Assembly (NCBI GenBank): GCA_000165345.1
Contig: CM000436.1
Location: 448,001 to 512,000, forward strand
Direction: 5' to 3'
Length of the DNA: 64,000 nt
Shown: piece by piece, positions 4,827-8,966 of the stretch
Layout: each line of letters opens with the position of its first letter
Numbering within the stretch: the stretch's first letter is position 1
Position numbers and translations under genes: made by a program
The notes under the pieces: generated by a model
Told to the model about the DNA's origin: nothing
The model's input: only the letters and a program-made list of their open reading frames with translations
The model's database searches: none

Positions 4827-5285
4827 CTATTTATTTAAAAAAAAAAAGAAAAGAAAAAAAAAAACCTCATTCTCTACCCTCCAAAAAAGCTCAAAAAAGA
4901 GCTCATATAGTCTCATTAACCATTAATATTTACCAATTCATGCTCTTCAAGCTTCCCGCCAATTATTCTATGTGTTATTACTACCTCTGTTTTGCATGTG
5001 TTTTGCCATGAGGGGTTTCGGCGCGGCCCCACAGCGCCAAACTTTGAGTAAATGCAATATGTGCCTAAAGTGTGTTGATAAAAGCCGAAATTTGAAATTA
5101 TATGTTAAACAAAGAGAATTCGTAAGTCCGAATTTATTTGCATACTCAATTATATACATATTATACGTTCTTATATTATATAATAAAAAATAAGCTTAGG
5201 ATCCTTGATATTATAGGAGAAAAAAATAGCTATATAAGGGTTAGTAAGGTCACGAGAGATCATTGATTTTGAATATTGGGAGAAA

Positions 5286-5966
5286 ATGTACAGAGAACAA
5301 TCATCAACAGTTTTGGATTCTCCTATGAATGGAGGTAGTGCTAAACTTGGAGCTTCTAGTTCATCATCTATGAGCTCAAATTTCACTAGAATGGACAGTT
5401 TTAATCGATCAGGAAGCAAAACAGGGTCAATTGCGCCAAAATCTTCAGAATATGGTCCAACAGTACAGCAGATTTTGGAAACTTATGAGAGTCTTAGATT
5501 GAAAGCTCAAGGACTTGCTAAGAGAAAATTGAGATCCTGGGATGGAGACTTCTTTTGCCTTTCATCTTTCCAAAAAGTATCACAACCAAAAGAAATTACA
5601 GATCGACTTGAAAGGAATCTTCGATACTTCTTACTAAATTATATTGTAATTATACTGGGTATGACTATGCTCTCTCTAATTTTGAATCCTATTTCTTTAA
5701 TCATTATTTTAATATCAACCTTTTCTTCAGCTTTTGTAGCATCTAGACCAACAGATATGGTAGTATTGCCAGGAGATAATGTAATTAGCAAGAAAGTGGC
5801 TTTATATGTGATAGCAGGAACATCAACTGTGATCATTCTTGTATTTTCAGGAGCTCTATTATTCACATCCTTGGCAGTATCGCTCATTCTTGTATGTATC
5901 CATGCAGTCATACACATTGGAAAGTCTAATTACGACCAGGTTGCAAACTTAGAGAGCGAAGTATAA
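5286..5966 (+). CDS. PRA1 (prenylated Rab acceptor / Yip3) family membrane protein
   Basis: ATG at 5286. The sequence LRSWDGDFF...RLERNLRYFLLNY is followed by hydrophobic hairpin segments, matching the PRA1 signature (RPWxxFF ... NLxYYxxNY). Confidence 0.8.
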   Translation: MYREQSSTVLDSPMNGGSAKLGASSSSSMSSNFTRMDSFNRSGSKTGSIAPKSSEYGPTVQQILETYESLRLKAQGLAKRKLRSWDGDFFCLSSFQKVSQPKEITDRLERNLRYFLLNYIVIILGMTMLSLILNPISLIIILISTFSSAFVASRPTDMVVLPGDNVISKKVALYVIAGTSTVIILVFSGALLFTSLAVSLILVCIHAVIHIGKSNYDQVANLESEV

Positions 5967-7308: not shown

Positions 7309-8523
7309 ATGATGATTACAAAAGGAGGAGATTACTCAGAATATTCAGAAATACATACACAGGATATTGAGAAATCTAAAGATTATGACCAAGAATGTGT
7401 AGAATTAAGGAAAAGTGTGAGAGAATATCTCGAAAAAGAAAGCAAAATAAACTTATACTTTTCAGAAAAGAAGAGTTATTTGATAAACAAAGAATTTGTA
7501 GATATTCAGGTCCAATTAAACTCACAACTTTGCCCAAAAGTTAAACTTTGGAAACGAATTGAAGAACCAAACTCAAAAGAATTCTCCAAATTAAAAAATA
7601 ACCCAACTCAACATCTTTTTGCAATTAAAATCTATTCAAAACCCCAACTCATTCGGAGAAACATTGTCTATTCTTCAGACAGGAAAATCAGGACCCAAAT
7701 GCATCGTGTAATTAACGAAATCAAGATTCTACAATTCCTTGCAAAAACCGATCCCACATACTACTATATTGCTAAATTACACAAAGTTCTTGAATCTTTT
7801 CCTTCTACCTTATCTTCCGGAAAATTGTATCTCATCTTTGACTTTTTTCCGATTGGACCCACAATGGCGCCCGACACAGGGGCAAGGCGCGCGCGCGCGT
7901 GCCCGGGGTTTGAAAAGAATCTTTTAGTGTATACTCCAAGTCCTGCATTAGAGAGGACAGAGGTAAGTATAAGGAGAATGGCTTACTGTATTGGAGTAGC
8001 TCTATCTAGACTTCATGAGTTAGGGATTGTTCATAGAGATGTAAAACCTGATAATATTATGCTTACACATACTGGAGATGCATTTTTGAATGACTTTAAT
8101 TCTGCAGAATTTTTAATTCAAGGTAAATATGTTCAGGGCACTGAAGGAACATATGCATTTTTTCCTCCTGAGCATTGTAATATAAACAACAATAGCAATA
8201 AAATTGTTACTGAAAGGAACGAATCATCCGAAATCAATGAACAAGAAGAATGTTCCCAATCTACGCTCCAATTGGGATGTCCAGCAGATATGTGGGCTCT
8301 TGGAGTCACAATTTGGTGTTGGTTTTATGGTACACTACCTTTTCAAGGAAATAGTATTTTAGAGCTTTTTGACAATATTACAAAATGTAAGATTGAGTTC
8401 CCTAGACAGCCTACTTTATCAAATGAGTGTATTAATGCCATTTTGCATCTTTTAGACCCAGAACCGAATTCCCGTTGGACTGCTCGTCAGTTTCTTGAGT
8501 CCGACTGGTTTTCTAAAAACTAA
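7309..8523 (+). CDS. Serine/threonine protein kinase with a divergent N-lobe and a GC-rich in-frame insert
   Basis: ATG at 7309. Kinase motifs are present: LFAIKIYSK (VAIK-like), HRDVKPDNIML (catalytic loop) and DMWALGVTIWCWFYGTLPF (subdomain IX). No clear glycine loop is visible. Confidence 0.75.
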   Translation: MMITKGGDYSEYSEIHTQDIEKSKDYDQECVELRKSVREYLEKESKINLYFSEKKSYLINKEFVDIQVQLNSQLCPKVKLWKRIEEPNSKEFSKLKNNPTQHLFAIKIYSKPQLIRRNIVYSSDRKIRTQMHRVINEIKILQFLAKTDPTYYYIAKLHKVLESFPSTLSSGKLYLIFDFFPIGPTMAPDTGARRARACPGFEKNLLVYTPSPALERTEVSIRRMAYCIGVALSRLHELGIVHRDVKPDNIMLTHTGDAFLNDFNSAEFLIQGKYVQGTEGTYAFFPPEHCNINNNSNKIVTERNESSEINEQEECSQSTLQLGCPADMWALGVTIWCWFYGTLPFQGNSILELFDNITKCKIEFPRQPTLSNECINAILHLLDPEPNSRWTARQFLESDWFSKN

Positions 8524-8966
8524 TTAAATTAACCTAAATTTGCTACCTTTAATTATTATTACTGACATTTTTTTCCGATACCCTTATTTTCTCTTTGCAT
8601 GCATGCATGTAGTTCATTCCTAGAACTCGAACATTTGGGTTTCACTGCCATAATTTAGAAAATAAAACTTAAATAAAATACTTAAAATACTTATTACTAA
8701 TAATAATGATAATAATAATCGAGGTCACATATCTTTTTCTACTTTTATTTAAAAAAAAATACATAGAAATATCATTACGATGTTTTTTTTTATCTGTAAA
8801 ATGTTTTTTAAAAAAAGAAAATATATCAATTCCCGATTCTATTATTGGCCCATATAATGCTTCATAGTGTATTATCATCCTCCGATTTACTCCACTTTCG
8901 ATTCTTTTATTCCCATCTAATGAGGAATTTTTCTTTTGTCCTTTCCTATTTTATTATCATCTTTTA

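Follow-up and report, generated by a model that had tools for sequence, protein, structure and literature searches.

A conserved GC-box pair within a Cryptosporidium parvum kinase coding sequence: a candidate dual-use coding and regulatory element

Related systems and the host kinase

Gene regulation in Cryptosporidium is poorly understood, and E2F/DP is thought to be the dominant regulator. Among upstream motifs, the E2F/DP1 core [C/G]GCGC[G/C] is the most abundant (PMC3734150); it also dominates in ATAC-seq peaks (bioRxiv 10.1101/2025.01.17.633476) and ranks first among the motifs that precede antisense lncRNAs (PMC7840661). The full 8-mer has been published as [A/T][C/G]GCGC[G/C][A/T] (PMC12246861), and the C. 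parvum genes for these factors are cgd1_1560 and cgd6_1430 (CpE2F) and cgd7_3650 and cgd8_1850 (DP). The GC-rich island described here, which lies inside a kinase gene, shares with the Cryptosporidium E2F/DP1 promoter elements (TTTGGCGCCAAA; PMC3734150, PMC12246861, bioRxiv 10.1101/2025.01.17.633476) the palindromic G/C core, the pairing of cores a few to 30 bp apart, and conservation at orthologous positions as deep as that of syntenic promoter boxes. Unlike these elements, the island is located in the middle of a coding sequence (CDS), has neither the T-rich 5' nor the A-rich 3' flank, and contains a CG run that is not the form used by the promoters of the window (the whole 64-kb stretch of DNA analysed); no transcript is known to start near it.

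Inserts are frequent in C. parvum kinases and are mostly of unknown function (PMC3227725). The loop encoded by the island resembles the apicomplexan kinase insert loops of the C. parvum kinome (PMC3227725) in that it is in frame, variable among lineages, positioned after the hinge and structurally tolerated, but it differs in that its DNA is better kept than its peptide and its composition is opposite to that of the genome. The GC-rich elements of Plasmodium falciparum (RUF6 ncRNA genes; PMC7840661) are likewise short, sharply bounded GC islands in an AT-rich apicomplexan genome with a proposed regulatory role. RUF6 genes, however, are intergenic, about 135 nt long, separately transcribed and multicopy, whereas the kinase island is 45 nt, single-copy and coding, and has no Rfam match or related copy in the window. 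With Z-DNA-forming (CG)n tracts and quasi-palindrome mutation hotspots, the island has in common a 12-nt alternating CG run, a perfect palindrome and clustered multi-base substitutions at the edges; in contrast to them, its run has long been kept within a reading frame. Exonic transcription-factor binding sites that constrain codon choice, or 'duons', have been described for human exons. As in these, the bases of the island are both codons and a candidate DNA-binding site, with unusual conserved synonymous choices over the motif; unlike the human cases, the island is a candidate site from sequence, belongs to a tiny, AT-rich genome that has very few families of transcription factors, and encodes a dispensable-looking loop rather than a constrained domain.

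The host ORF of the island (7309-8523, forward strand) encodes a CaMKK/Elm1/LKB1-like Ser/Thr protein kinase of 404 aa, with 100% identity to the annotated 'protein kinase [C. parvum Iowa II]'. In assembly GCA_048859185.1 the gene occupies 446,054-447,268 of CM109968.1, and the island about 446,609-446,653. The name given to the C. hominis orthologue relates it to the Elm1p/Pak1p SNF1-activating kinases, and the closest relatives with solved structures are CaMKK2, CaMKK1 and STK11. The GC content of the gene is 36%, as compared with 31.9% for the 64-kb window, and the gene on its 3' side is convergent.

Since an AlphaFold2 model calculated from a 10-sequence alignment had a mean pLDDT of 41 and was unusable, the sequence alignment with CaMKK2 was used in its place. 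In the phmmer alignment, residues 172-188 of the query corresponded to positions 119-134 of the CaMKK2 chain and residue 232 to position 156, with 44 residues between the aligned blocks in the C. parvum kinase as compared with 22 in CaMKK2. This places an insert loop between the hinge and helix E, at residues about 189-212 (7873-7944, forward strand; borders approximate), in agreement with the original prediction of an insert between kinase subdomains V and VIa. The island covers the Met-Ala-Pro of the hinge motif GPTMAP and the first dozen residues of this roughly 22-residue surface insert. The loop is in frame and without stops, between the kinase motifs LYLIFDFFPIGPTMAP upstream and YCIGVALSRLHELGIVHRDVKPDN downstream, and is present in all orthologues, although its length (30-57 residues across Cryptosporidium species) and its sequence vary. 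As part of a CaMKK/Elm1-like kinase gene, the GC island is coding sequence translated in the ordinary way, and its predicted in-frame position in the kinase CDS was borne out by the translation of the ORF.

The GC island and its conservation

The island (ATGGCGCCCGACACAGGGGCAAGGCGCGCGCGCGCGTGCCCGGGG; 7864-7908, forward strand) comprises codons M186-G200, which read ATG GCG CCC GAC ACA GGG GCA AGG CGC GCG CGC GCG TGC CCG GGG, begins 555 nt inside the 1215-nt CDS, and is translated in frame as ...PTMAPDTGARRARACPGF.... Its GC content of 82.2% is the maximum among all 45-bp windows of the 64 kb, tied only by a second island at 37043-37087, so that the island of about 80% GC originally reported against a background of about 30% is confirmed. 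Two boxes, to which no strand is assigned, lie within it. Box 1 is the palindromic GGCGCC at 7866-7871, contained in the codons ATG-GCG-CCC for Met-Ala-Pro of the hinge. Box 2 is an alternating G/C run at 7887-7899 that codes for Arg-Ala-Arg-Ala and can be read as (CG)6 at 7888-7899 or equivalently as (GC)6 at 7887-7898; the run had been described as (CG)5 and is one unit longer, whereas GGCGCC is located as described. The ancestral form of box 2, TGCGCGCGCGCGGG (Cys-Ala-Arg-Ala-Gly), starts 24 nt past the ATG of box 1. GCGCGCGCGC occurs once in the window and in none of 100 dinucleotide-preserving shuffles, and the (CG)6 at 7888-7899 is long enough for a candidate Z-DNA-forming tract (alternating CG, about six repeats or more).

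A dispersed GC-rich repeat or mobile insertion was considered and rejected, as the window held no related copies (local alignments of the island to four other GC-rich spots, at 4994, 34250, 37043 and 55103, scored the same as shuffles), the CG run was unique, and a scan of metagenome contigs with GGACCCACNATGGCGCC-N(14-20)-GCGCGCGC gave no match. In C. felis, the one species compared, the site orthologous to the second island at 37043-37087 is not GC-rich.

Both boxes were found in a fixed register in eight species of three lineages, at 69-97% nucleotide identity to C. parvum; besides C. parvum, these are C. hominis, C. meleagridis, chipmunk genotype I, C. ubiquitum and three further taxa. Outside C. 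parvum, the boxes were found at eight loci from seven taxa. While ATGGCGCC and the CG run are kept in register in the eight species, the spacer and the neighbouring residues vary. Box 1 is identical in 8/8 box-bearing species, with Ala187 encoded by GCG in every one, and a run of at least 8 alternating G/C in the same register, with R196 encoded by CGC, is likewise present in 8/8. C. felis, although its amino acids differ there (MEPAN...), has CCCGCC and CGCGCG at this site. In the outgroups C. bovis and C. muris, the island position is occupied by loops that are longer, AT-rich and unrelated. Judged from these alignments, the boxes evidently arose before the split of the three intestinal Cryptosporidium lineages and have been kept as GGCGCC plus a (CG)4-6 run. 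The suggestion of a recent insertion is contradicted by the presence of the same boxes, in the same register, in eight species of three lineages.

Among C. parvum, C. hominis, C. tyzzeri and C. meleagridis, visibly more variation is seen in the peptide around the run than in any other segment, yet CGC-GCG is fixed. A substitution cluster flanking this CGC-GCG core (7888-7905, forward strand) contains 6 of the 36 parvum-hominis differences of the whole gene, a degree of clustering matched in 221 of 20,000 permutations; all six alter amino acids, and the (CG)5-6 run persists. Peptide 193-199 differs in every close taxon, and C198R is the sole differing residue of P0058, a Logan-derived variant protein otherwise identical to that of C. 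parvum. Amino-acid conservation of the insert across distant orthologues, which the original prediction named as the mark of ordinary coding sequence, was found only in one respect: the loop occurs in all orthologues, but the peptide is poorly conserved between the closest species while the nucleotides are kept.

A perfect palindrome of 10-16 bp is centred on the run in every species, and that of C. hominis, TGAGCGCGCGCGCTCA, is the product of five clustered changes. Selection for extended dyad symmetry was rejected, as a longer palindrome (3 nt more on each side) is confined to C. hominis, an event with an estimated chance of about 1/64 for one species and about 0.12 over eight, which is not significant. 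Microsatellite slippage was also rejected: the interspecies differences are substitutions rather than gains or losses of repeat units, and since length changes are independent of repeat units, the run does not behave as a slipping microsatellite.

Codon choice and competing explanations

Under local codon usage, the island peptide would be expected to have 54% GC, as compared with the 77% observed; of 200,000 re-encodings made with this usage, none was as GC-rich as the actual sequence. G/C occupies 13 of 16 third positions in the island, as compared with a GC3 of 0.24 in 22 other ORFs. The relative codon frequencies of GCG and CGC are 0.04 and 0.013, respectively, and all GCG (3/3) and CGC (2/2) codons of the gene are inside the island; even the GC-richer orthologues use CGC for only a minority of their Arg residues. 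At third positions, the pairwise identity over the run is 0.85 (gene mean 0.62), which ranks in the top three among 6-codon windows although the loop around it is otherwise poorly conserved; two other windows of the gene reach 0.85-0.89, and the island was tested post hoc, the region having been picked for its GC content. GCG187 and CGC196 are among the 15 codons, out of 103 four- or six-fold degenerate codons with an invariant amino acid, that are identical in all eight species; third positions are otherwise only about 20% invariant across lineages, and when the GC-rich P0006 is compared with the AT-rich lineages, G/C-ending codons are retained at a rate of about 0.29 per codon. From the use of the rarest Ala and Arg codons of these genomes beyond the need of the peptide, and from the drift of the peptide around a fixed CGC-GCG, we infer that the constraint looks to be nucleotide-level rather than peptide-level. 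Since the DNA of the island is kept more faithfully than the loop it encodes, it may also serve as a DNA control site.

A serious alternative, in our view somewhat less probable than the explanation preferred below, is that the island has no separate function and is a fast-evolving Ala/Arg/Gly/Pro-rich surface loop, like the common C. parvum kinase inserts of mostly unknown function (PMC3227725), whose GC-rich coding persists neutrally or mutationally. Hairpin- or palindrome-templated repair or template switching could regenerate the (CG)n quasi-palindrome, or repair could be locally GC-biased; the substitution cluster at the run flanks between very close taxa is what is expected of a mutagenic self-complementary sequence, and the palindrome found on the run in every species fits such a process. 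The 54% GC required by the peptide alone, and the synonymous conservation of the run, which is not unique within the gene, point in the same direction. However, the rarest codons (GCG, CGC, GCG) have been kept in three lineages with AT-rich genomes (GC3 0.29-0.37) in spite of the low per-codon retention, the length changes are not in repeat units, and an extension of the palindrome past the run is notable only in C. hominis. In addition, C. bovis and C. muris are AT-rich at the island position, so that the GC block must have originated, and then lasted, in the face of the compositional trend. The substitution cluster at the run edges, together with the uniqueness in 64 kb of (CG)6, a classical Z-forming sequence, and the G/C-ending codons that reach past both boxes (CCC GAC ... 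GGG ... CCG GGG), would also be consistent with a DNA-structural element. In this reading the tract would adopt the Z-DNA or cruciform form when transcription supercoils the DNA and would mark a spot that is free of nucleosomes or prone to recombination, and GC-biased gene conversion would have raised the G/C content of nearby codons. We regard this as very unlikely, as the island is only 45 bp long with sharp borders, which is narrower than typical gene-conversion tracts, and box 1 is equally conserved without being alternating.

An element acting in the mRNA, either a stable G/C structure and/or a rare-codon cluster that slows ribosomes once synthesis of the N-lobe and hinge is complete, or a target of an RNA-binding protein, appears unlikely, though it too stays a contender. 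In an mRNA that is AU-rich elsewhere, the folds of the 54-60 nt around the island do have energies of -13 to -23.5 kcal/mol, RNAalifold allows pairing between the two boxes (93.5% of cells paired), the relative usage of 10/16 codons is 0.15 or less, and the island lies at the junction of the N-lobe and C-lobe. Nevertheless, the stability does not exceed that of dinucleotide-preserving shuffles (z -0.82 to +2.1 for 54-60 nt and -0.55 to +1.14 for 111-117 nt), the predicted structures vary among species, the covariation score, with a single compensatory pair, was matched by 86 of 500 shuffles, and the conserved feature is an exact sequence in a fixed register rather than pairing potential. A specific RNA hairpin was accordingly set aside as unsupported, its folds being no stabler and its covariation no greater than those of shuffles; an Rfam scan of the island at E up to 1 gave no family match, and a tRNA scan found nothing. 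At the level of splicing, the C. ubiquitum gene model has an intron or alternatively spliced segment of 54 nt (GTTCGAGG...TCTTTTAG) over the CG run, and deleting nt 566-619 of the 1212-nt gene reproduces the annotated 385-aa product exactly. An intron is nonetheless highly improbable, as the borders of the C. ubiquitum segment (GTTCGA...TTTTAG) are replaced at the 5' side by GG rather than GT in C. parvum, C. hominis and C. meleagridis (GGGGCA or GGGGCG), the segment is in frame and stop-free in all species, every other annotation translates it, and its deletion loses FEK(N/S)LL (FEKSLL in C. ubiquitum), which is kept in 6/7 other species of the clade and appears as IERNLL in P0006. Finally, only the extreme contrast in composition favors a recent insertion, contamination or an assembly artefact, the last of which had been raised in the original prediction, and we consider the probability negligible: the identical kinase protein is encoded on 23 or more contigs from independent assemblies and sequencing runs, so that the island is no assembly artefact; the boxes occur at the eight other loci in seven other taxa; and the island does not resemble the other GC-rich spots in the window.

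A candidate E2F/DP box pair and its implications

The explanation we prefer, to which we would give somewhat less than an even chance, is that the island is a GC-box pair of the E2F/DP type and a candidate for dual use as coding and cis-regulatory sequence. The tolerant kinase loop would host a recognition element in double-stranded DNA, most probably a pair of core sites for E2F/DP transcription factors, [C/G]GCGC[G/C]. The same bases would double as codons and as a protein-binding site, which would fix the codon choice and leave the peptide free to drift. The site might control a start that is internal or antisense, or it might modulate the host gene or its neighbours.

In the 64-kb window, GGCGCC was found 19 times as compared with 0.70 expected, and the [C/G]GCGC[G/C] cores are distributed over 18 intergenic sites versus only 3 loci within ORFs. 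The island contains this core hexamer as GGCGCC at 7866 and as five overlapping matches starting at 7886, 7888, 7890, 7892 and 7894, each of them GGCGCG or CGCGCG. At the syntenic loci of other species, cores within other CDSs are sporadic and species-specific, whereas the conservation of the kinase box pair reaches as deep as that of the neighbouring syntenic promoter pairs; the PRA1-upstream promoter also has, in several species, paired cores 5-30 bp apart. A local promoter matrix was built from the 18 intergenic boxes of the window (consensus TTTTGGCGCCAAAA; training scores 8.4-20.1, median near 18). On this matrix, box 1 scored 12.3 bits, the third lowest relative to the training set, and the CG run 6.9 bits or less; the promoters of the window use GGCGCC or GGCGCG, never CGCGCG. 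The A/T flanks of the published 8-mer are absent from both boxes (T-GGCGCC-C for box 1; A-GGCGCG-C and G-CGCGCG-T at the run ends), and while E2F/DP1 sites are expected in upstream non-coding DNA or open chromatin, the island is mid-CDS and without an obvious downstream target. Hence, the proposed identity with the local promoter boxes holds for the GGCGCC core, which dominates the intergenic regions of the window, but not for the CG run, and the proposal of a binding site or exonised regulatory element stays viable as a candidate whose flanks depart from the E2F consensus.

Nothing positive speaks for the proposed internal promoter: 12 probes spread over the gene all failed to match, on either strand, the lncRNA set of Li et al. 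2021 (of which an estimated 90% or so was covered), while positive controls matched. The GenBank tag CPATCC_003980, mapped with some uncertainty to CryptoDB identifiers, gave no hits. More tentatively, the island can be viewed as a putative intragenic protein-binding DNA element, for E2F/DP or an unknown CG-box factor, that may have been kept throughout the radiation of the intestinal clade. Such an element could drive an internal or antisense transcript of an SNF1/AMPK-activating kinase, and the second island, at 37043-37087, might belong to the same putative class. If this reading is true, the kinase island would be the first apicomplexan sequence documented to serve both as code and as regulatory element.

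To our knowledge, published motif work has all been confined to upstream non-coding DNA. Even if it reflects no more than mutation, the island is useful as a hypervariable marker separating parvum, tyzzeri, hominis and meleagridis, and it holds the sole amino-acid difference between protein variants at the C. parvum identity level. If the preferred explanation is true, the island would be a small, readily recodable CRISPR test case for E2F function. It would also explain odd clusters of rare codons, and would warn that gene finders may splice out such islands, as apparently happened in the C. ubiquitum model. The regulatory elements of a 9-Mb genome would then be able to hide in coding sequences.

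Composition and coding context of the GC island

The GC island (7864-7908, + strand; ATGGCGCCCGACACAGGGGCAAGGCGCGCGCGCGCGTGCCCGGGG) contained 82.2% GC, as compared with 31.9% for the window, and was the most GC-rich of all 45-bp windows (99.9th percentile, 69%), its sole tie being a second island at 37043-37087. As originally predicted, it lies in frame within the kinase CDS; its codons correspond to M186-G200 within ...GPTMAPDTGARRARACPGF..., in the frame of ORF 7309-8523 (+). GGCGCC occurs at 7866 (box 1), and an alternating run, predicted as (CG)5, was present at 7888-7899 (box 2) as (CG)6, one unit above the earlier count. GCGCGCGCGC was found once in the window and never in 100 dinucleotide-preserving shuffles, and GGCGCC was found 19 times against 0.70 expected.

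When the same 16 residues were re-encoded with local codon usage (the 22 other ORFs of the window), 54% GC was expected, as compared with 77% observed, a value never reached in 200,000 random re-encodings. The relative frequencies in these ORFs were 0.04 for GCG among Ala codons and 0.013 for CGC among Arg codons; all GCG (3/3) and CGC (2/2) codons of the kinase gene are inside the island. CGC is a minority Arg codon in the GC-richer orthologues, too. The island is more GC-rich than its peptide requires.

ORF 7309-8523 showed 100% identity with 'protein kinase [Cryptosporidium parvum Iowa II]', and the depositors of the C. hominis orthologue relate it to Elm1p/Pak1p, kinases that activate SNF1 in yeast. 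The solved structures nearest in sequence were CaMKK2, CaMKK1 and LKB1/STK11. Since the kinase LYLIFDFFPIGPTMAP aligned with the CaMKK2 hinge LYMVFELVNQGPVMEV, and the next aligned block followed after 44 residues, as compared with 22 in CaMKK2, this alignment places box 1 (Met-Ala-Pro) in the conserved hinge and the remainder of the island at the start of an approximately 22-residue insert before helix E, in agreement with the predicted location between subdomains V and VIa. An AlphaFold model of the kinase, built from a shallow alignment, had a pLDDT of 41 and was unusable.

Conservation of the island among Cryptosporidium species

The original prediction had raised the possibilities of an assembly artefact and of a recent insertion. 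An artefact is effectively excluded, as independent assemblies and sequencing runs yielded at least 23 contigs that encode an identical protein. We compared the syntenic locus (PRA1, PNO1, kinase, V-ATPase B), or the gene alone, in ten other taxa. ATGGCGCC was present in eight taxa (C. parvum, C. hominis, C. meleagridis, chipmunk genotype I, C. ubiquitum and three SRA-run assemblies), with 8-13 nt of alternating G/C located 24 nt past its ATG; the box 2 consensus, TGCGCGCGCGCGGG, codes for Cys-Ala-Arg-Ala-Gly. The GC fraction of the 45 bp was 0.69-0.82 in these taxa, in genes of 36-52% GC. A recent insertion is effectively excluded, because both boxes are common to these eight taxa, which fall into three lineages (neighbour-joining tree, loop left out) and have 69-97% nucleotide identity to C. 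parvum. The corresponding position in C. felis has CCCGCC and CGCGCG but encodes other amino acids, and the loops of C. bovis and C. muris are longer, AT-rich and unalignable.

In the deposited C. ubiquitum model, 54 nt over the CG run (GTTCGAGG...TCTTTTAG; locus L002 3566-3619, gene nt 566-619, in frame) are spliced out. Such an intron is effectively excluded: C. parvum, C. hominis and C. meleagridis show GG, not GT, at its 5' border; splicing would remove FEK(N/S)LL, which is kept in six of the seven other clade species (IERNLL in the seventh); and the region is open in frame in every species. The intron is probably a gene-model artefact deleting conserved residues, probably provoked by the non-coding-like composition of the island. 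Taken together, the island is a genuine, ancient and translated sequence of the kinase insert loop.

Only 20% of third positions were invariant among the eight taxa, and only 15 of the 103 four-/six-fold codons with an invariant amino acid were identical in all eight, GCG187 and CGC196 included. Third-position pairwise identity was 0.85 over the run versus a gene mean of 0.62, placing the run in the top three 6-codon windows of the gene, the two others equalling it. G/C-ending codons of P0006, a GC-rich taxon, had the identical codon in AT-rich lineages only about 29% of the time. C. parvum and C. hominis show 36 differences, six of which lie within 7888-7905 and all change amino acids; this clustering was matched by 221 of 20,000 permutations. 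Residues 193-199 read RRARACP in C. parvum, RRARARP in a Logan variant, RCARALP in C. tyzzeri, RCERARS in C. hominis and RSARAGS in C. meleagridis, with CGC-GCG (R196-A197) never changing. These comparisons, which were partly post hoc and of moderate significance, the region having been chosen for its GC content, suggest a constraint at the nucleotide level, with selection on the nucleotides apparently maintaining both G/C boxes.

The Logan-assembled protein P0058 differs from the Iowa II protein solely by C198R (codon at 7900-7902, within the island); if TGC to CGC, this change would extend the CG run.

Other G/C boxes and GC-rich sites

The second 82%-GC island (37025-37110) likewise lies in a CDS, that of a PASRT-repeat protein with an approximately 27-aa repeat (34044-37451, +; annotated in C. 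felis as 'XP motif-containing protein'). The island contains CCCGCC, CCCCGGGG, GGCGCC and GGCGGGAAA, and encodes GAPAPGAPAG in place of one repeat's usual QYPADPNHGF; the corresponding site of the C. felis orthologue has neither a high GC content nor the boxes. A canonical TTTGGCGCCCAAA box (37970-37975) lies between this gene and the convergent gene 38063-40228 (-), a position at which an mRNA promoter would not be expected. GGCGCC at 42619-42624, in ORF 41284-42726 (+) and 107 nt before its stop, scored 13.6 bits on a matrix built from local intergenic sites, and may be a promoter box of the next gene (43522, +) extending into the upstream CDS. The G-rich GGAGGTAGTGGAGG-type repeats at 27786-27896 (62% GC; ORF 26816-27949, +) appear to form a low-complexity repeat, rich in Gly and Ser, within the coding sequence.

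A 67%-GC intergenic island (4992-5050) lies upstream of the PRA1-family gene (5286-5966) and bears TTTCGGCGCGG and AGCGCCAAAC boxes; C. hominis, C. meleagridis and P0006 have paired boxes at the corresponding position. It resembles an ordinary promoter of E2F type and shows that local promoters are able to form small GC islands. An AP2_1-type motif, TGCATGCATGCATG, is located 73 nt past the kinase stop (~8594-8609; L010, 4288; L009, 4280-4296; L002, 4344) in the 3'-3' intergenic region. TAGGCGCCAA lies directly 5' of it in C. hominis, E2F-like cores occur there also in C. meleagridis, C. ubiquitum and P0006, and an 8-bp deletion takes out the box in C. parvum Iowa II. This site may be the promoter of an antisense/non-coding transcript differing between C. 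parvum and C. hominis. Among the 7.3-kb syntenic loci, that of C. muris has no [C/G]GCGC[G/C] or GGCGGG core and that of C. bovis one cluster only (L008 and L007), with 9-25 matches per locus in intestinal-clade species; box usage may differ between Cryptosporidium clades.

Possible roles of the island

The [C/G]GCGC[G/C] core occurs at 18 intergenic sites of the window, mostly as TTGGCGCCAAA, and within long ORFs at only three places, the kinase island, 37076 and 42619. In the literature this core is identified as the E2F/DP1 motif: it is the commonest of the upstream motifs in C. parvum (PMC3734150), predominates in ATAC-seq peaks (bioRxiv 10.1101/2025.01.17.633476) and ranks first in the 100 bp preceding antisense lncRNAs (PMC7840661). 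GCGC-type sequences are not a reported target of any C. parvum AP2 domain. In the syntenic loci, promoter boxes were conserved to a depth equal to that of the island's boxes, and cores in other CDSs were sporadic and species-specific. The PRA1-upstream promoter also has paired cores 5-30 bp apart, as in the island. However, the published E2F/DP 8-mer (PMC12246861), with its A/T flanks, is absent from both boxes, and local promoter boxes never use CGCGCG, unlike the island's CG run. Box 1 scored 12.3 bits on the local matrix and the run at most 6.9 bits (training sites, 8.4-20.1).

We tentatively favor, as the most likely mechanism, a dual use of the island as coding sequence and as a putative DNA-binding element of E2F/DP type. 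The main rival, neutral or mutational persistence, seems rather unlikely. In its favor, every species has a perfectly palindromic run, and clustered changes created a 16-bp perfect palindrome in C. hominis, which would fit template-switch mutagenesis. A role at the mRNA level is improbable, as the island folds no more stably than composition-matched shuffles, with folds varying by species, and the single compensatory pair of the alignment consensus had a covariation score matched by 86 of 500 shuffles; Rfam and tRNA scans of the island gave no match. A Z-DNA or recombination element is very improbable. The island bore no likeness to the window's other GC-rich spots that would indicate a repeat or mobile origin, and a metagenome scan gave no match. 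Of twelve probes spanning the gene on either strand, none matched the portion of the published lncRNA FASTA that was compared, which did contain the control primers, although a promoter may sit outside its own transcript. With dual use as our preferred reading, we regard the island as a modestly interesting lead.
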